64,000 bases of DNA, taken from NCBI GenBank assembly GCA_000004695.1, contig CM000152.2, forward strand, positions 480,001 to 544,000. The letters are read 5' to 3'. The DNA comes from Dictyostelium discoideum (Eukaryota). The translations under genes and the position numbers were made by a program. How positions within the stretch are numbered: the first letter of the stretch is position 1; each line of letters begins with the position of its first letter. Below, in pieces: positions 24,442 through 54,111 of this stretch. Under the pieces are notes generated by a model. The model was not told where the DNA came from. It made no database searches and saw nothing but the letters and a program-made list of their open reading frames with translations.

Positions 24442-24843
24442 ATGGAAAATTTAAATACAACAAGTACGGCAGCATTAACTGGTATGACAAAACAAGAGAA
24501 TGATGCATCATATGCAGTTCTATTGATTGCAGATTTTACATCAATAATTGGTTGTACATTAGTTTTATTAGGTTTTTGGAGATTAAAATTACTTCGTAAT
24601 CATATTACAAAAATAATTACCTTTTTTTGTTCAACATCATTAGCCAAAGATTTAATATCAACAATTTTAACATTGATTGAAAAGAAACAATCAAATGGGT
24701 CATTCCAATGTTACCTTTACGCAACTGTTATCACTTATGGTTCATTGGCATGTTGGCTTTGGACATTATGTTTATGTAAGTATTTGTTATAGAAATAAAA
24801 ATAATAAAAATAATAAAATAATTTTAAAAATTATGTTTAGAAA

Positions 24844-24881
<38 letters not shown>

Positions 24882-25795
24882 AATTTAATTTTTATTATTA
24901 TTTAATATTAATATTATTATTATTTCTATTACTTTTACAGCATTTAGTATTTATAATTTAATTGTAAAGAGAGAACCAGAGCCAGAGAAATTTGAAAAAT
25001 ATTATCATGTTTTTTGTTGGGTTGTACCATTTATAATGTCAGTGATAATGTTGTCAAAGGGTGTTATAGAGGTGACGGGTAATTGGTGTTGGATTGGTAA
25101 CACTTATGTTGGGTATAGATTTGGCTTGTTTTACGGACCATTTCTTGCAATTTGGTTCCTTGCTGCCGTGTTGGTTGGTTTGACTTCGAGGTATACCTAT
25201 AAGGTGATTAGAAGTAGTGTTAGTGATAATAAGGATAGACATATGACCTACCAATTCAAGTTAATCAATTATATAATTGTTTTCCTTTTATGTTGGGTGT
25301 TTGCTGTTATTAATCGTATTGTCAATGGCTTGAATATGTTTCCAGCTTGGGTTAGTATTCTTCACACCTATCTAAGTGTATCGCATGGTTTCTATGCTTC
25401 GGTGACTTTTATCTATAATAATCCATTGATGTGGAGATATTTAGCATCAATAATTTTAATTCCATTCACAAAGTTTGGTTATTTTGTTGAAACTCAACAA
25501 AGATTAGAAAAAAATAAAAATAATAATAATCATTCACCAGTTGGGTTATCAAATAATGCTCAAAATAATAATCATCATCATAATCATAATAATAATCACA
25601 ATAATAATCATAATAATCATAATAACAATAATAATAACAATAATAGTGATTTCGTTAATAATGACTCAAGTAATTATTATACTGCTTCAATGATTGAATC
25701 ATTCTCTGTTCAAAATGAAAATTCAAAATCTATAAATGGTGCTGATAATTTTAAACAAAATGGTGCAAGTCAACAAGATGATAAAGATTCTCCAA

Positions 25796-25878
<83 letters not shown>

Positions 25879-26079
25879 TATAATAATAAAGATATTGAAC
25901 CAATTGACAATTGTAATACTAATTCCATACCAATGGATAATATTGCCACTAGAATTGAAATACCTCCACAACATCCAACATTAACTCCTCAACAATCATT
26001 ACAAGAAATTAATTTAAATGATGACGACAACAAAATTAATACTCACCAAAGTAACAAAAAAAAAGATTCAAATGTTTAA
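24442..26079 (+). CDS. carC: cAMP receptor, cAR family; 2 exons, 490 aa, the size of cAR3; His/Asn-rich C-terminal tail
   Basis: join(24442..24775,24941..26079). Donor TTA T|GTAAGT, acceptor TTTTACAG|CA. The cAR signatures match carD above and cAR1 almost residue for residue in TM1-TM7. The paralog assignment is by predicted length only. Confidence 0.8.
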
Positions 26080-26382
26080 AAAAAAAAAAAAAATCCAAGA
26101 GTTTGAAAAAAAAAAAAAAAAAAAAGATCCAAGTGTTTAAAAAAAAAAAATAAATAAAAAAAATAAAAAAAATAAAAATAAATTATTTATGTACTTCGAA
26201 TAATATGTATTCTCAAAAAACTTATTTTGATTTTAAAGAACAACGTGAAGAGGATGAAATTTTAAATAAAATAGATTTTGACCAAGAAACAAAATCGGCA
26301 AGGAAATTTTGATTTTCATTAGCCAGCTTGGCCCGATAGTAATTTAAAAATATCAAGCCAAAAAAAATTTGATTTTCATCAG

Positions 26383-26465
26383 CCGGCTTTGGCGCAATGG
26401 TAGCGCGATTGACTGTAGTAATATTAGTGATCAATCGGTTGCTAGTTCGAATCTGGCAAGCCGGA
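26383..26465 (+). tRNA. tRNA-Tyr (anticodon GUA) with ~11-nt intron 3' of position 37
   Basis: Acceptor stem CCGGCTT/AAGCCGG with discriminator A; D-arm GCGC-AATGGTA-GCGC; anticodon stem ATTGA/TCAAT; anticodon loop C-U-G-U-A-G with intron TAATATTAGTG (eukaryotic tRNA-Tyr genes are intron-containing); T-arm GCTAG-TTCGAAT-CTGGC. Followed by a CTTTT pol III terminator. No encoded CCA. Confidence 0.75.
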
Positions 26466-26489
26466 CTTTTCGTAAAAAAAATTAAAGTC

Positions 26490-26503
26490 GAGGGTTCGAT
26501 TCT
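26490..26503 (+). promoter_or_regulatory. Extra (ex-)B box downstream of tRNA gene
   Basis: GAGGGTTCGATTC matches the pol III B-box consensus GGTTCGAnTCC and lies ~27 bp past the tRNA 3' end, as is typical of Dictyostelium tRNA loci. Confidence 0.5.
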
Positions 26504-26539: not shown

Positions 26540-29165
26540 ATTAAAAGAACATAAATTCATATTGGTATACCAATTAAATTAATAAATTTAATCCACAAGC
26601 TATTATCTGACTCACAAGCAAAAATTTCAATTAATGGTAAAACGACCAGAAAATTCGATATTAAAAGAGGTGTAAAACAAGGCGACCCAATCTCGGCCAC
26701 TTTATTTGTAATTGTAATTGAAATATTAGCAAGAACAATAAATGCAGACAATTCAATAATTGGATTACCAATTTCACCCAATCCACAAATTAAAATCAAA
26801 TTTACCCAATTTGCAGACGACTCTACAACATACAACATCAACTACGAACAACAACAACAATCAATCAAACATTTCCATAATTTCTGCGCTTCAACATCAT
26901 CATCATTAAATTTTGACAAAAGTGCAATAATAGAAATCAACCCCCACAAAATCACTGATAAACACATAATAAACAACATTCCACAATCAAAAAGAATACC
27001 AATTACCAAAAAAGATCAATCAGAAAGAGTTCTTGGCTATTTCTTTAATCATAATGGTTTACATAGGAAATTACCAGAAACAATGAAAACACTGATCAAA
27101 TCATTAGTACTATGGAAAACTAGTGGCACAACATTAAAAACAAAAACAACCATCATAAACACCTACTCACTATCACCAATAACATATTTATCATACCTTG
27201 AAGAATTTACAAAAGATGAAGAAATTCAAATTAATAAATTAATCTCATGGTTTATGAATTCTCCCGCAAATTCTGAATCACCAACTCTCAATACCAATTC
27301 CATTGAAAACAACACATCAACCATCCATTCACGTGCAAAAATACCTTTGATGTGTTATGATAGATCATTAAAACCATTAAAAGAAGGTGGTTGGGGTATG
27401 TGGAATATACAATTACGACAAGTTGCTCAAAAGATTTGGATATACAACAGATTTTTACAAATGCATAAATCTGCAAACAATTCAATATACATGATAAGTT
27501 GGATGGATCAAATCATCAACAAATCAATCTCTTCTCCATACCTTATAAAAATCAAAAAAGAATGGGAAAACTATGCAACTCAAATTGGACATCTAAAAGA
27601 TAAAGTTCAAACCCTACAACCAATATTAACAAAAAACCAAACCTCTCAAACATTAAACACAAATAATATTTCACTACCACCAACACTCAAAGAAATCTAC
27701 TCGAAAATACTCAACAATCACCAATGCAAATCAAAAGACTATATTGACAAGAAATATTCAGATCTACTTCTTAATTCGCACCAACAATCAATACAACTAT
27801 TATGGAAATACACTTACGACCAACTTTTTGTCAAAATTCAAAAATTAAAAGATCCAAAAGGCCGTGATACAATGCAAAGATTCCATGCTAGATTTCTTCC
27901 AATTAATCATCTACACAACAAAGTTTGCCCCATTTGCAACAATGAAATGAATAATGATCCCTATGGTCATTTGTTTTTCAATTGTCAACACACAATCAAC
28001 TTCATAAACCACGAAAAATTAAAATATTTTATATATAAAAATTGCAATGGAAACAAAAACTGGTCACTAACAAAAAACCAAACAACAAAATTATACACAC
28101 TCATTTATAAACCACAAACAAACAACAAAGCATTTAAACCAGATCCAACTATCAATATAAATTTTCATTTTGCAGAAAACGCACAATATAAAAAATACAG
28201 GTTCAACTGGAATTATATAAACACAAATCTTGATCTAGTCAGAACACATGCATATTGGAACATAATCTCATTAGTTATTCACCAAATATGGATATGGTTA
28301 TGCAAATCATTATTTGACATCAATATAACTCAATCAATTGACAATTGGAACAACCAAATAAACAACACAACACTAGATTATGATATATTAAAATCAAAAT
28401 GGCACAAGCTAATAAGATTGGAATATTCAAGAACATTATCAAACTTTAACCAATACTCAATTAAAAACAACCTCACAAAAACTCAAAAAGAAACCCAATG
28501 GTCCGAAACCATCAAAAAATTTAAAAAAGAATGGAGCATAAACACAAATGAACCAATTCCAACAATTACACCACCAATTAATTATTAATTGCCTAATCTA
28601 AAATAACATACCATTTTAAATTCACAAAAACTAAAAAACCTAAAATAAATAAATAAAAATAACATACTAATTGTATACTACAATAGTTTATTTATATCAA
28701 AAAAAAAAAAAAAATACCCAATTCCGAGAACATCTAATTCCATCGTCTATTAATAAAACTATTAATTATTGCTAACTTCCTTTACTGGATAAAGGTGTTT
28801 AATTAAAATTTCTAAAAAAATCATCCAAAATCAATATCAATCATTTTTGTCAATCCAAATATATCCAAATATAAGAAGTTCCTGAAACAATTAATAATTG
28901 TTTTTTTCCTTTAATGGATAAACACTGGTTAATCAACTAATCTAAAAAAATTAAATATATTCAAAAAACAATGGATACATTAATTTTTTTATTTTTTTAT
29001 TTTATATAATTTTGTGTATTTTTGGGTGCTCTATATTTATATATTAAATTCTTGTAAAATAAATTAATTTGTTAAAAAAAAAAATAAAATAAAAATAAAA
29101 AAAAAAAAATTAAAATATTTTTATTAACAATTCCCCAAACCAAAAAAAAAAAAAAAAAAAAAAAA
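26540..29165 (+). mobile_element. TRE3-type (tRNA-gene-targeted, 3'-side) non-LTR retrotransposon, 5'-truncated and defective copy
   Basis: It begins ~75-90 bp downstream of the tRNA-Tyr 3' end, in the same orientation. It encodes the C-terminal two-thirds of a LINE-type reverse transcriptase (FDIKRGVKQGDPISATLF, FADD) followed by a Cys/His-rich tail (CPICNNEMNNDPYGHLFFNCQH). The 3' UTR has imperfect internal repeats and ends in an A-run near 29135-29165. Confidence 0.65.
26581..28588 (+). pseudogene. Retrotransposon ORF2 (reverse transcriptase) remnant with frameshift
   Basis: The RT motifs are in frame 1 (26581..27045) and the long ORF 27083..28588 is in frame 2. The overlap at 26972..27045 means a 1-nt frameshift there. 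The ORF has no 5' part (no endonuclease or N-terminal RT motifs). Confidence 0.6.
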
Positions 29166-29240
29166 TTTCATCAATAAAAGAAGACTTTGAACCATTAAAA
29201 AATAATAAATATCATAAAATTTTAATTTTTTTATTTTAAT

Positions 29241-29610
29241 ATGATAAAAGATTTTAACGAATCAAACATAAGAAATATAAGATCGTCAGGCATTAGCACC
29301 AAAAAGTTAGAAGACTTTTTTTCGTAAGAAGGAATATAAATAAAAAAATAAAAAAAAAATAAGAAAAAAAAGTTCAAAACAATTTTATATTTACCAATTA
29401 TTATTATTTTAAAAAAAAAAATAAAAAAAAAAATAAATAATATTAAAAAGTATTAACCAATATCCAAATAAAAATGAAATAAAAGATTTTGCAAATTACT
29501 ACCAATGTGATGAAACCAAAATAAAAAATTGGTTCAAAGGAAAGAGAGACCGTTTAAAAAAAAAGTCATCAAATAATGAAAAGAGTGGAAATAAGTTTTA
29601 TTTTAAATGA
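29241..29610 (+). CDS. Homeodomain-only small protein (~80 aa), 2 exons; not in ORF track
   Basis: join(29241..29323,29451..29610). Donor TTTTTC|GTAAGA, acceptor TTAAAAAG|T. Product MIKDFNESNIRNIRSSGISTKKLEDFFSINQYPNKNEIKDFANYYQCDETKIKNWFKGKRDRLKKK.... It aligns to the homeodomain consensus at helix 1 (L-E-x-x-F), N-x-Y and helix 3 (KIKNWFKGKRDR vs QVKIWFQNRRMK). Confidence 0.45.
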
Positions 29611-29788: not shown

Positions 29789-29793
<5 letters not shown>

Positions 29794-31275
29794 CTTTTTT
29801 ATCATCGTCATCATTATTATTATTATTATCAATTAAAGTTGGTTGCTCGAGTACAGCCAAAGAATATTTTGAATGTTGATGACTTGGATATTTGATGATA
29901 TGACAAGTTGTTGGATCAAATGATCTAATCTCCATGATAGTTGAGAGGAGTACAGGATCAACAGGATTTAATAGATTTTGAATATTTTGAGCAATCTCTG
30001 AGAAATCCACAGCATCTAAATTTGGATTTCTAAAAATTGATTGTGAGGTATTATTTGGTTTAAAAGAGTAACAAAGAAAAGATATCATCAATATGAATAT
30101 TGGTTCTGATAAAGTGAATGCCAACCAATATAAAGACCATACCATCACAATTCTTAAACTATTTACAAATAAAATCGCACCTAAATATAAAACTACTGAA
30201 GTTCTTAAATTTGTAAAAACTCTTTTCTTTTCTGATAAATTATTTACTTGTTCTAAATTATTAATATACCTATATACATATATTTTAAAATAAAATTTTT
30301 ATTTGTTAAAAATTATAATAATTATAATTATAATTATAATTATAATAATAAAACTTACCTTGATAAAATTGAATGAGAATAAAGAATTCTTAAATTCTTT
30401 GTAATATTTGTAAATATTTTTGGCATCATAAAAAAGTAAAGAATCATTAAACTAAGGAAATAATAAATATCATTATAGAACCTAAAAAATAATAAAACAC
30501 CACAAAGGAAGAATCCTACCACAAAAATTGCCTTTAATTCTGATCTTGATAAAGTTTGTCTTGTTACTCTTAATCCCCTTGATAATATAAATAAAGTAAG
30601 GAAAAATGCTGTTTCTGAAAAGGAATAAAATATATTTTGAATATACCATAATGCCATACTATAAGTACCAAGATTATTTGCATCTGTCCAAAACGAATAT
30701 TGAACGATAATTAATATTAATTTTAAAACTAATACAATATCTATTTTTTTAAAAATAAAATTTTTATGTTAGAATAAAATTATAAATTTATTATTATTAA
30801 TAATATTATTTTTATAATACATACATAAAACAATATGTAAAATATTTAAAGAACTTTTATGACAATACCAAAATATTGTAACAGTAAAAAATAAACAACA
30901 AAATATTATCATAATATAACGATAGAGTAGAGGTAATTGAAGGTAACCTTTCTCCAATTGACCATTTCTATTTGTTAGGGTGAATGACATATCAATGGAA
31001 GCAGTTCTAGTATCTGTACATTTTAAAATGATAACTCTATACATATCGGAATCTGGTATATCAAATGTACCTTTAAAACCTTGATATAATGGAATATTAT
31101 TTATTGGACAATTTGATAAAGTTGCTGTACCATCGCATAATTTAGTTTCAATTGTATTGGTTGGTGTTGAACCAATTACTGATTGATAATCTCTATCTTG
31201 ACATATCCATAGTGTAATATTATTAATTGGTATTATTACACCACCTGTACTACCTGTATAAACTGGTGAAGTATT

Positions 31276-31306
<31 letters not shown>

Positions 31307-31581
31307 TTATTATTATTACCGCCCATTGTAGTAGTAGTATTATATAAAACAATTGTACCATCCAATTGAAGCTTCTTTATATTTATATCTGCAAATCCAT
31401 TACTATCATATCCATATTGTTCAACCATATAATAATTACCACTAAATGAAAACTCTCTATCATATATCATACAATTCCCTTTATCTAAAAATAATAACAA
31501 TATTATTGTTGTTATCAATATTATAAATTTTATACTATTACTACAAATTCTACTATTACTACAAATGTTTATTCTATTCAT
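29789..31581 (-). CDS. Signal-peptide + 7TM membrane protein, LUSTR (GPR107/GPR108)-like paralog; 3 exons, ~538 aa
   Basis: complement join(30825..31581,30359..30740,29789..30269). Donors TTA T|GTATGT and TCA AG|GTAAGT; acceptors AAAATAG|AT and TATATAG|G. The splices link ORF-track pieces 30769..31581, 30355..30657 and 29789..30148 in one frame. Signal peptide, luminal domain and seven predicted helices. Confidence 0.55.
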
Positions 31582-31599
31582 TTTCTATTATTTATTGTT

Positions 31600-32536: not shown

Positions 32537-33659
32537 TTATTCATCTAGTTGATGAATTGGGAAATAAGTTTGTAAAAGTTTTCCATAAATTTGATAATCT
32601 TCTTTGGTGAAGATACAAAATATAATTCTATCTATTTTTTTATGATGAATTTTCAACCAATTAGAGATGGTTGATAGGGCGATATGAGCAGCATCTAAAC
32701 TTGGGAAACCATATACACCAGTTGCAATACAACAAAAAACAACAGTTTTGAGGTCATTTTTTAAAACGATATCCAAACAAGACTCGTAACATTTCTTTAG
32801 AGTATCTGGATTTTTATCCATTGGACCAACAGTATGAATTACATATTTTGCTGGTAATCTATAACCTCTAGTGATTACTGCTTTACCAAAGTCACATCTA
32901 CCAAAGACTTTACACTCCCTAACGAGACCAATACCAGCTGCCTTATGAATTGAGCCATCGATACCACCACCACCCAACAAAGAGGGTCTGGCTGCATTCA
33001 CAATTGCATCGACTTCCAATGTTGTAATATCACCACCAAATAAACAAAGTTTTTTATTCAAATATGCACTTGGCTCGATCTCATTATTTGGTTTTGGAAC
33101 TCTATGTCTGTTATTCTCTAAAAATTGATACCAACTCGTTAATTGATCCCATGTTTTATAATCGTTACCACAAACATATAATTTTCTTTTCTTTTCTCTA
33201 AATTTAGGATCACTCATATCTAAATCATCTGCCATCATATCTTCTTCACTCTCACCTATACTATTTGAACTTGATGATTCAAATAAACTTTCATCATTAA
33301 ATTCCATTTCATATTTCTTTTTATTTGTTTGTTGTTGCTGTTTACTAATACTATCAAAATCTTTATTATTATTATAATTATTACTATTATTGCTATTACT
33401 ATTACTATTATTATTATTATTCTTTTGAAATGGTTTAAAACTAGCTACAATTTCACGTTTTATATTTCTCCTTTTAGTTGTATCATCAGTTCTTCTTTGA
33501 ACAAAAGCATTATAATCTATAATTTTATCCTCTTTTCCAATTCTAATTATTAAAGATTTTTCTGCATTTTGGTATCCACATTCAATAGTTTCATTTATTT
33601 CTGAATTATATTCTTCCCAACCTGAATCACTTTGCCAATACCATTTACCTGAACCTTGA

Positions 33660-33730
<71 letters not shown>

Positions 33731-34700
33731 GTTATTATTATTATTTGATGAAGAGGATTTTTGAGTAGTTGATGAAGTTGTATTTGTATTTGATGTTTTT
33801 GGTGGTGTTGTTGTTGTTGGTTTTAGTGGTACATTAGAAGTTGTTTTTGGAGTTGAAGTTGTATTTGTATTTGTTGTTTTTATTGGTTCACCTTTTCTAA
33901 CAGGTCTAACTTTTTGGTTATCATCATATCTTCTTTGAAGTAAATTCTCTAAATCTACAAATCTATCATCATCAATTTGACATCTTTTATTTCCTTTTTT
34001 AACTGATTCATCCAATTTTTGAGAATCTGAATCTGAATAATCTCTCCATGTTCCATTATCTTCTCTCCATTGCCATTTTTTACTATTATTATTATTATTA
34101 TTATTGTTGTTGTTGTTGTTATTGTTGTTGTTGTTGTTGTTATTGTTGTTGTTATTGTTGTTGTTACTGTTCCTGCTGTTACTGCTGCTGTTATTATTAG
34201 ATGGTGTTGATGGCTTTGGGGGTGTAGTACTACTTTTAAACATTGAAAATGCATTACTAAATTTAGAATTTTGATTGCTTGAGGAAGAACTTGAATTTGA
34301 ATTTGAATTTGAATTTGAATTTGAATTTGAACCTGGTTTAAATTTAGATTGTTCACCAGTTAAAGAATTTGGAACAGAAGATAATGGTAAATTAATTGGA
34401 ATTCTACGAATTTCTCTTTGTTTTAAAAGTGAATCATATCTTTTTTGTTTAAAAGTTTTAAAGTCGATATATCTTTCTTCATCGATTCTAATATCTTTTG
34501 ATTGTTTTTTATAAGCTTCTTCAATTTGATACATCTTTTCAACATCATAACTCTCCCAACCACTATCGGATCTCCATTGCCATCTATTTGCCAATTCATC
34601 AGAGTTTATTACTGGTTTTGATTGACTTGCTAATTCCTCTTCAATTGATTCATAAACAGATGGATCAATATCAATATCATCATCATCATCAATTTGAATA

Positions 34701-34744
<44 letters not shown>

Positions 34745-34791
34745 GTTATTGTTATTGTTATTATTTGTCTTTTTAAATGGTTGTGGATTAC

Positions 34792-34846
<55 letters not shown>

Positions 34847-35209
34847 GTTATTATTATTGTTATTGTTGTTGTTATGATCATTATCATCAAATTTTCTTTT
34901 TTGTACAGATTTTGGTGTTAAAATTACAGCATTATTAATTTTAACTCTAGAGTCTAAATCTTTTGGTGTTTCAGTCTCTTCATCACTATAAACAAATGTA
35001 CCTTCATCTTTTTTATTTTTGTTGTAATTGTTATTATTATTATTTTTATTATTATTTGATTGATTAAAGAATGATAAATCGTCTGTGTCTTCGTCATTGT
35101 TGTTATTATTATTTCCATGTGGTTGTTGGGAATTTGAGTTATTTGAGCTATTTGAATAAAAACTTCTCATTTTATTACCAAAACTATTTGTTTTATCATC
35201 ATTTGACAT
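32537..35209 (-). CDS. Triple WWE-domain + C-terminal macro-domain protein (ADP-ribose / poly-ADP-ribose reader), 890 aa, single exon
   Basis: Three repeats: RWQWRSDSGWESYD...IDF..FKQKRYD, KWQWREDNGTWRDYSD...VDLENLLQRRYD and KWYWQSDSGWEEYNSE...IDYNAFVQRRTD, matching the WWE pattern (W-W-E, Y, D-h-x-x-h-Q-R). C-terminal macro domain GGDITTLEVDAIVNAARPSLLGGGGIDGSIHKAAG. Long poly-Asn/Ser/Thr linkers. Confidence 0.7.
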
Positions 35210-35487
35210 TTTTTAATGTATAAATTGGAAACAAAAAGATATTTTTTTTTTTTTTCAACAAATATTTTTTAAAAAAAAAAAAAAATTTTAGAAAAATAAT
35301 TGAAAAAAAAAAAAAAAATTATAAAAAAAAATCTTGGCGGGATTTTTCTAATAAAAAAAGAAATTTATAGAATTTAATAAATTACTTTTATTTTATTTTT
35401 TTTTTTTTTTATTATTTTTTTTTTTTTTTTCTAAAATTATATTTTGGTTGACTAATAATAATTAATAGTTATTATATTTTTGATTGA

Positions 35488-52286: not shown

Positions 52287-53250
52287 AAATAAAAAAAACA
52301 ATTTGGAAACCTTAATAAATAAATATGGCAAAAAATAGATTTAAATTTTTTTTTAAAAACAATACATACTGTTGCAATTATTTTTGACATTAAAATTTAT
52401 TAATTTTTTAAAACAGGTGTGGAGTGTGACACTAAAAAAAAAAAATTTCACTGTACGGTGTGTTTGGTGTGTTTTTTTTTTTTTTTTTTTTTTTTTCTTA
52501 AAGTGGTTAGGTTTGGTGGTACATATAATTTTTTTAAAAATAATAATAATAATAAAAAATAATAATAATTTTTTTAAATTTTAAAAAAAAAAAATAAAAA
52601 AAAAAAAAAAATAAAAAACAAACAAAAAAGGTTATTTTATAAATATGGTAAATTATAACTTTTAATTTTTGTTTTTTTTTTTATAAATTTAAAAATAAAA
52701 ATTAATTGAAGTGCATTCAAATAAAAACGATCTTAAAAAAACCTTTCATTATTTTTTTTTTTTAATATATTCATAATTGTTTTTTAATTTTTTTTTAATT
52801 TTTTAATATAAACAATAATAAAATAATTATAATAATAATAAATAATAATAAATTTAAATGATTTTTATTTTTACTAAAATGTTTAGATTATTTTGATTGG
52901 TTTTTTTTTTTTTTTTTTTTTTTTTCATTTCACTAAATTATTTATTTAATTCCTGTCAGTGATTAAACTTTTTTTTTTTTTTTACTATTTTCTATTATTA
53001 ATTTATTTATTATTTATTTATTTCCAGTGGTTAAATTTTTTTTTTTTTTTTTTAAATTAATAAAAAAAAAAAAATAAAAAATAAAAAAAAAAAAAATAAA
53101 AATAAAAATAAAAACAATAATAATAAAAAAAAAAAAAAAAATGAAAATAAGTGATTGTTTAAATTTGAAATCTTTTTTATTTTTATAAAAAAAAAAAAAA
53201 TAATAAAAAAAAAAAAAAAATTAATAATTACCAATTGATAAAGAATTTTT

Positions 53251-54111
53251 TTAAGAAGAAGATGTTGAGATTAAAGGAGATCTCTCATGTTGCACAGGAA
53301 ATTCCAAACCAGATAATATTGTATAATTAATTGCTATTGGTAAGAACCATGTTAAAGGATTTTTACCAAAAACTTGACAAAAGTTTTTTTTAAAACCTAT
53401 ATTAAATATATTTGCTCTTGAACCATCATTACCTTTATCATCTCTTCCTAAATTTCTATTATTACTACTATTATTGCCACTACTTTTATTATTTTTTTCG
53501 AAATGTTCAATTGTAGTTTCATTATAAAGTATATATTTGATATGGGTCATTGTAAAAAAGAAAAGTCCCAAACCAAATACTAATGCTATAATTGAAACTA
53601 TTCCTAATACTACACTATCTGATCCCTGTTTAAAAATAAATTTCATTTTTTTTTTTTTTTTAATTCCCATTATATAATTTTAAAAAAAAAAAAAAAAAAA
53701 AAAAAGTATTTACTTACTTGTTGCAATAAATTTTTAAGATTTGCTGAAGTTGTACATAAAACAAATAAACATAAGGTTGTACTCCACATAAGAAATAAAA
53801 CAAAGAATTTATAGTTATAAAAGCCAACACAATTATTTATGAATGGGCTATTATAATTATTATTAATTTCAAAGAGTTAATAAATAAATAAAATAACTAT
53901 TAATTAATTGTTTTTCGTTTTATTAAATACATACCAATGATGATCCATTTTTAATATACATCTTTTACATTTTGAACAATGATGACATCTATCTGGTTTA
54001 TTCAATGAACATTTTGAACATTTTCTATTCTTTCCTGAACTATTAAATTCATAAAATGAAACTGATTCTAAATCCTGTGATTGAAGTAACTAATGTTTTT
54101 AGGTTAGTAAT

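Follow-up and report, generated by a model that had tools for sequence, protein, structure and literature searches.

A homeodomain with next to nothing attached to it, encoded by two tiny exons downstream of a retroelement, raises two questions for the stretch of Dictyostelium discoideum DNA analysed here (64 kb, hereafter the window; AT-rich, 22% GC): whether such a gene is real and new, and what a protein of this kind might do. An earlier note, made from the letters of the window, had described an unannotated gene for a bare, HOPX-type homeodomain at this place.

Structure and identity of hbx7

The locus lies on the plus strand and consists of the following parts, with homeodomain positions counted from Trp55 of the protein, taken as position 48.

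29241-29323, plus strand: exon 1, 83 nt, opening with ATG and ending in phase 2; encodes helix 1 (KKLEDFF), preceded by the conserved N-terminal arm IRNIRSSGIST
29324-29450, plus strand: intron, 127 nt, 8.7% GC, GTAAGA...AAAAAG
29451-29610, plus strand: exon 2, 160 nt including the TGA stop at 29608-29610, encoding the loop, helix 2 and recognition helix 3
29518-29559, plus strand: recognition-helix core KIKNWFKGKRDRLK, residues 51-64, homeodomain positions 44-57
29539-29541, plus strand: GGA codon of Gly58, homeodomain position 51, normally Asn

Joining the exons in phase 2, as the earlier note had proposed, yields a coding sequence of 243 nt whose translation, MIKDFNESNIRNIRSSGISTKKLEDFFSINQYPNKNEIKDFANYYQCDETKIKNWFKGKRDRLKKKSSNNEKSGNKFYFK*, reproduces the 80-aa protein given there letter for letter. 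The product (9.7 kDa, pI 9.8) has a 7-residue leader ahead of the homeodomain and, at the end of exon 2, a short, basic, non-conserved tail of Lys, Ser and Asn. The exon-1 frame meets a TAA straight past the sole nearby GT, and the exon-2 frame opens a few codons 5' of the sole available AG, so that this splice is the only one possible. It is backed by the protein family as well: the spliced product matches Pfam PF00046 with 36.7 bits (E 3.8e-9; residues 20-65 on profile positions 12-57 of 57; gathering cut-off 22.9 bits), compared with 26.3 bits for exon 2 alone, and exon 1, worth about 10 bits, therefore carries a genuine helix-1 homeodomain signal. Both exons are shorter than 60 codons and hence fall below the open reading frame track, as had been claimed; the listing of frames at the locus holds exon 1 alone (28 aa).

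The gene is not, as had been supposed, unannotated. A word-indexed protein search returned DDB_G0278225, 'Homeobox protein 7', with 100% identity and 100% coverage, and an exact-sequence look-up retrieved EAL68285.1, XP_642221.1 and UniProt Q54YI1 (HBX7_DICDI, Swiss-Prot), placed on a contig of 6,357,299 bp. HBX7_DICDI agrees with the 80-aa product in every residue and in length and represents one and the same gene; its database name is homology-based, and the D. discoideum AX4 record is entitled 'hypothetical protein DDB_G0278225'. The gene is hbx7 (DDB_G0278225) of D. discoideum chromosome 3 and is already known. It also appears in the transcription factor catalogue of Forbes et al. 2019, where Table S3 places it in the HOX family (PMC6873476). 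The 'Growth' sheet of the same table includes hbx7 among growth-phase expressed genes, with the flag 'downaftergrowth', i.e., growth-enriched, as the column positions were read (PMC6873476); transcript data thus exist for a gene that had already been catalogued. The two-exon gene is real, it is transcribed, and it evolves under purifying selection; we regard its identity and structure, as described here, as practically certain.

The literature on the gene is thin. No functional study of or experiment on Hbx7 was found in the searchable literature. The sole match to 'hbx7' in Dictyostelium full texts is a typo for human HOXB7, and the locus tag DDB_G0278225 is absent from the searchable main texts. 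A transcription factor knockout paper of 2025 does not mention hbx genes, and Hbx7 is absent from life-cycle proteome supplements.

That the product is a homeodomain follows from the Pfam scan that the earlier note had called for, and it finds further expression in sequence and fold comparisons. Against the TALE model PF05920 (Homeobox_KN) Hbx7 scores 20.5 bits, under the cut-off of 24 bits, and its spacing between helices 1 and 2 is that of Antennapedia (Antp) and engrailed, without the three-residue TALE insertion. By its sequence, Hbx7 is a typical 60-residue, non-TALE homeodomain. A phmmer search against PDB sequences returned homeodomains only among the best 60 of 121 matches, headed by engrailed, ATBF1/ZFHX3 and HESX1. 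The AF2 model, computed from a 2-sequence alignment (mean pLDDT 70.5; N-terminal arm unmodelled, pLDDT < 50), places helices at residues 20-29, 35-45 and 49-72, with pLDDT 86-90 over residues 21-60. In a Foldseek comparison of this model with the PDB, the best 50 matches were all homeodomains, most fitting with 0.9-1.7 A rmsd over 45-56 residues and target-normalised TM scores of 0.65-0.80. Hbx7 is thus predicted to fold as a normal three-helix homeodomain. The description as a bare homeodomain was borne out: besides the above-threshold Pfam match there is no further Pfam domain, and conservation is confined to residues 8-66, which are the homeodomain.

Conservation between D. discoideum and D. 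purpureum

In the five-genome comparison of Forbes et al. 2019, hbx7 has an orthologue in D. purpureum only (DPU_G0054012), and D. lacteum, P. pallidum and D. fasciculatum lack one (PMC6873476). The D. purpureum protein (DICPUDRAFT_92118; XP_003288568.1 / F0ZMC4) has 87 aa and is 62% identical over the homeodomain. Its gene occupies positions 1114-1607 of the D. purpureum sequence L001, and two genes that converge on hbx7 in the window recur beside it:

29789-31581, minus strand: multi-exon membrane-protein gene without Pfam match; order conserved in D. purpureum, with window 29792-31584 matching L001 1820-3919, 3' of the orthologue and on the opposite strand
32537-35209, minus strand: gene whose 890-aa product contains three WWE domains and one Macro domain; order conserved in D. 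purpureum, with window 32540-35212 matching L001 4639-7431

Because the same downstream genes follow in the same order and orientation, the D. purpureum gene is the positional orthologue of hbx7.

Two species only provide the evidence on conservation, and within this pair the protein has been retained through extensive change at silent sites. The alignment spans 65 codons; the residue agrees at 41 of them, at 21 through a different codon, and the Nei-Gojobori estimates are pS 0.82 (saturated) and pN 0.24. In the recognition helix KIKNWFKGKRDRLK, all 14 residues are identical across 7 silent codon differences; the unusual Gly51 is encoded by GGA in D. discoideum and by GGC in D. purpureum. Introns and flanks show a similarity no higher than shuffled controls (for the intron, 55% identity versus 52%). 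The conserved span runs from the initiator Met to just past the homeodomain, with C-terminal tails that bear no relation to each other; because conservation is limited to this span, the short gene model is complete, and a longer hbx7 with extra upstream exons was ruled out, given that D. purpureum conservation begins exactly at the Met and that the DNA 5' of it, at about 10-15% GC, aligns at a single 13-mer only. The selected unit is the bare homeodomain together with the N-terminal arm IRN[IV]RSSGIST.

The two genes differ in their introns. The search for a conserved two-exon homologue in other dictyostelids, which the earlier note had suggested, thus led to an orthologue, albeit one with three exons rather than two: D. 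purpureum carries an additional 70-nt intron within the N-terminal arm (L001 1149-1218). The intron common to both species interrupts the D. discoideum gene at 29323/29451 in phase 2, after Phe-Phe-Ser, and the D. purpureum gene 8 nt further 5', at L001 1261/1422 in phase 0, before Phe-Phe. These differences may reflect intron sliding together with the loss or gain of an intron in a tiny gene. In all, the orthologue shares with Hbx7 the Met start, the WFKGKRDRLK helix, the residues Gly51, Lys50 and Asp54 and the arm IRNxRSSGIST, and departs from it in its length, its tail and its exon number.

Beyond this pair, no orthologue emerged. The word-indexed protein search returned the Hbx7 proteins of D. 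discoideum and D. purpureum only, and phmmer, run exhaustively on 1.84 billion representative proteins (136 matches), yielded no further full-length relative, in agreement with Forbes et al., who had reported the gene from group 4 only; all matches other than the two Hbx7 proteins are generic or multi-homeodomain proteins. One of them, P0126 (80 aa, WFKGKRSR), was considered as a distant orthologue and rejected: it is fragmentary and encoded on a 2.4-kb scaffold of the TARA ocean metagenome, beside another homeodomain ORF, and its likeness is a coincidence within a tandem-homeodomain gene. A weak tblastn match to a second homeobox in the window, at 53238-53312, was likewise dismissed as Lys-rich low complexity on the strand opposite to a 139-aa ORF without homeodomain features. 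As a separate observation, the strongest non-orthologous matches (P0003, P0004, P0005 and P0042) each contain 5-14 tandem, highly divergent homeodomains, in which only 206 of about 500 WFxxxR motifs have the Asn and many lack Asn51.

The upstream retroelement and the tRNA gene

Upstream of hbx7, the window holds the following features.

24442-24792 and 25036-26079, plus strand: two-exon gene of the cAMP-receptor family, shortly before the tRNA gene, with Pfam Dicty_CAR matches at E 1e-48 and 1.6e-103
26383-26466, plus strand: tRNA gene (ARAGORN)
26493-26502, plus strand: B-box-like GGTTCGATTC, 27 nt downstream of the tRNA gene
26555-28588, plus strand: frame of a 5'-truncated non-LTR retroelement, beginning about 90 nt 3' of the tRNA gene
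29173-29185, plus strand: conserved 13-mer AATAAAAGAAGAC, 56-68 nt 5' of the hbx7 ATG

The placement of the gene downstream of a retrotransposon was correct, as a 5'-truncated reverse-transcriptase element does precede hbx7. Its frame matches the C-terminal half of RVT_1 only (profile 97-194 of 205, E 2.6e-11), with a FADD motif, and is followed by a 501-aa ORF that has no Pfam match. A C-over-G skew and a pair of repeats 129 nt apart persist to about 28,950, so that some 200-500 nt separate the 3' end of the element from the hbx7 ATG. The repeats, two 38-nt direct copies at 28756-28793 and 28885-28922 (82% identity), lie between the retroelement ORF and hbx7 and may be repeated 3' modules of the element. 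Among the TRE elements of Dictyostelium, TRE3 is characterised by insertion about 100 nt 3' of a tRNA gene, and the position found here fits a TRE3-type, tRNA-targeted element.

The tRNA gene itself is ambiguous. ARAGORN labels it Thr(TGT) without introns and Asn(GTT) with introns, in the latter case with an 11-nt intron at a non-canonical site; when the 11-nt intron is placed by hand at the canonical 37/38 position, the anticodon loop reads CTGTAGA, i.e., Tyr(GTA). In eukaryotes, tRNA-Tyr is normally intron-bearing, and the 'Thr' label should not be trusted. About 25 nt of the 5' flank and first bases of the tRNA gene, 26368-26393 (TTTGATTTTCAT[T/C]AGCC[A/G]GCTT..GGC), are duplicated 61 nt upstream at 26307-26332, which may mark where DNA was once inserted or rearranged at the tRNA gene.

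The DNA upstream of the gene (about 10-15% GC) is unalignable with D. purpureum except for the 13-mer AATAAAAGAAGAC, which recurs in D. purpureum at L001 980-992, 122-134 nt before the ATG. The 12-mer at its core is present a single time in each sequence, against expectations of 0.02 for the 64-kb window and 0.01 for L001, and none of 500 shuffles of both 300-nt upstream regions produced a common word of at least 9 nt with at least 3 G/C. The recurrence of the 13-mer indicates that the proximal upstream region of hbx7 is ancestral rather than derived from the retroelement, and the 13-mer itself is a candidate promoter or 5'-UTR element with a putative regulatory role. The idea that the homeodomain is part of the retroelement was discarded, since the D. 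purpureum orthologue has the downstream synteny and neither tRNA nor reverse-transcriptase sequence in 1.1 kb upstream.

A retroelement next door to a gene with so few relatives also invites the thought that hbx7 is a lineage-specific remnant, which arose when a piece of a larger gene with its homeodomain was copied in the group-4 ancestor, and which is transcribed, functionless and drifting. The orthologue in D. purpureum alone among the five genomes of Forbes et al. (PMC6873476), the lack of any other full-length relative among the 1.84 billion representatives and the loss of key DNA-contact residues (see below) would all agree with such an origin. We consider it very improbable, in view of a frame, start, splice sites and stop that are intact in both species despite the saturated silent divergence and low pN, a recognition helix unaltered through its silent changes, and the conserved synteny and upstream 13-mer. 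Moreover, the retroelement is a separate tRNA-targeted insertion, absent from the available D. purpureum upstream DNA.

Contact residues and likely mode of action

The core signature of the homeodomain (Leu16, Phe20, Trp48, Phe49 and Arg53) is complete in D. discoideum and D. purpureum Hbx7 (5/5 in each); the first four of these residues make up the hydrophobic core. At five other positions, both species carry the same residues:

position 5, usually Arg: Asn
position 8, usually aromatic: Ser
position 50, usually variable: Lys
position 51, usually Asn: Gly
position 54, usually variable: Asp

The position-for-position consensus match that had been claimed stands as a homeodomain match but conceals what is most unusual about the protein: in the recognition-helix core, WFKGKR, Gly takes the place of the near-invariant Asn51. 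Hbx7 possesses neither Asn51 nor Arg5, a deviation inside the family that leaves the fold unaffected. In homeodomains, Arg5 in the minor groove and Asn51 at a major-groove adenine make the main base contacts (PMC3738460), and other homeodomains reportedly no longer bind DNA once Asn51 is substituted (PMC2725295). Gly51 and Asn5 would thus argue for lost specific contacts in Hbx7, and Asp54 adds negative charge to the face of helix 3 turned towards the DNA. At the same time, Tyr25, Lys46, Arg53, Arg55 and Lys57, at positions that usually touch the DNA backbone, are retained, and basic residues occupy positions 46, 50, 52, 53, 55 and 57. The pI of Hbx7 compares with 10.8 for the D. purpureum orthologue, 11.2 for the Antp homeodomain and 4.8 for HOPX; the basic pI together with the kept Arg53, Lys46, Arg55 and Lys57 would argue against a complete loss of DNA contact.

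A basic, effector-less fold whose most conserved part is helix 3, combined with lost base contacts, makes a DNA- or chromatin-associated modulator the likeliest reading. Judging from sequence and predicted fold, we give about even odds (roughly 0.5) to Hbx7 being such a small, effector-less modulator with non-canonical recognition. It would associate with DNA or chromatin electrostatically, through the basic helix 3 and the Arg-containing arm, with a specificity that may be relaxed or non-TAAT. As Hbx7 lacks an activation or repression domain, we propose a passive role: in growing cells it might occupy sites, compete or pair up with another factor, and it would be switched off at the onset of development.

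By analogy with other homeodomains, the loss of Asn51 and Arg5 may also mean that specific DNA binding has been lost altogether, which would favour a HOPX-like or microProtein mode. The fold would then serve solely as a protein-interaction surface that titrates or recruits a transcription factor (e.g., another Hbx protein) or a chromatin enzyme, without binding DNA. The homeodomain-only architecture of about 80 aa, the exchanges Arg5 to Asn and Asn51 to Gly in both species, the effect of Asn51 mutation elsewhere (PMC2725295) and Asp54 are in keeping with this mode; we nevertheless find it doubtful, if possible. Hbx7 has no sequence relationship with HOPX and no known partner, and it is basic in both species, at pI 9.8 and 10.8, whereas HOPX is acidic and has lost Arg53. 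Moreover, Lys46, Lys50, Arg53, Arg55 and Lys57 have been kept under selection, as expected for a surface that meets nucleic acid.

Besides the modulator reading, we tentatively entertain, though as less likely than not, a more novel one, in which Hbx7 is an independently evolved, group-4-specific protist homeodomain-only regulator, strongly selected yet devoid of the Arg5 and Asn51 contacts. In growing amoebae, it would sequester or partner with factors, or read DNA (or RNA) unlike classical homeodomains, e.g., through a close approach of helix 3 enabled by Gly51, together with Lys50.

What does this amount to? As dictyBase, NCBI and Swiss-Prot have carried hbx7, with exactly these exons and annotated as a homeodomain gene, ever since publication of the genome, its recovery matters little as a finding of a genome scan; the residual value lies in a sharper description of an unstudied gene. 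Few homeodomain proteins are smaller than Hbx7, which occurs in group-4 Dictyostelia only, is expressed during growth and has a conserved Gly51 and Asn5. This conserved pair in an 80-aa protein is the sole point that deserves specialist attention, and it makes Hbx7 a cheap test case for what a homeodomain can do without the canonical base contacts, requiring one 80-aa protein and one point revertant.

Among known homeodomains, those of engrailed, Antennapedia and ZFHX3/ATBF1 (PDB 6m3d, 9ant and 2da2) are the best matches to Hbx7 in both sequence and structure, sharing its helix spacing and the five residues of its core signature. The identity to typical homeodomains is only about 25-35%, there are no class-specific motifs, and Hbx7 is set apart by Gly51, Asn5, Ser8 and Asp54.

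A second comparison concerns the K50 homeodomains (Bicoid, OTX, LEUTX and other paired-like proteins), which share Lys50 with Hbx7. In these proteins, Lys50 contacts the GG opposite the CC of TAATCC and thereby specifies CC after TAAT (PMC6258689). Given the above-threshold Pfam match, the normal predicted fold and the presence of this determinant (PMC6258689), Hbx7 could be a canonical, sequence-specific K50 transcription factor for a TAAT-like site such as TAATCC. We judge this improbable, as the adenine-reading Asn51 is Gly, the minor-groove Arg5 is Asn, and an activation or repression domain is missing. K50 proteins retain Asn51, an Arg2/3/5 arm and effector domains, all of which Hbx7 lacks.

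Finally, HOPX, the protein with which the gene had originally been likened, resembles Hbx7 in consisting of one homeodomain fold of about 73-80 aa and nothing else, and in having a residue other than Asn at position 51 (Gln in HOPX, Gly in Hbx7). The architectural part of the analogy holds. The sequences, in contrast, show no homology: with a HOPX sequence verified against PDB 2hi3 and 1uhs, BLASTP gave no alignment to Hbx7 at E <= 100, and HOPX is absent among the best 60 of the 121 PDB sequence matches. The charge is opposite as well, with an acidic HOPX lacking Arg53 and a basic Hbx7 possessing it. The nearest relatives of HOPX are paired-class animal homeodomains, and its resemblance to Hbx7 is one of convergent architecture, an analogy at most rather than membership in a common family.
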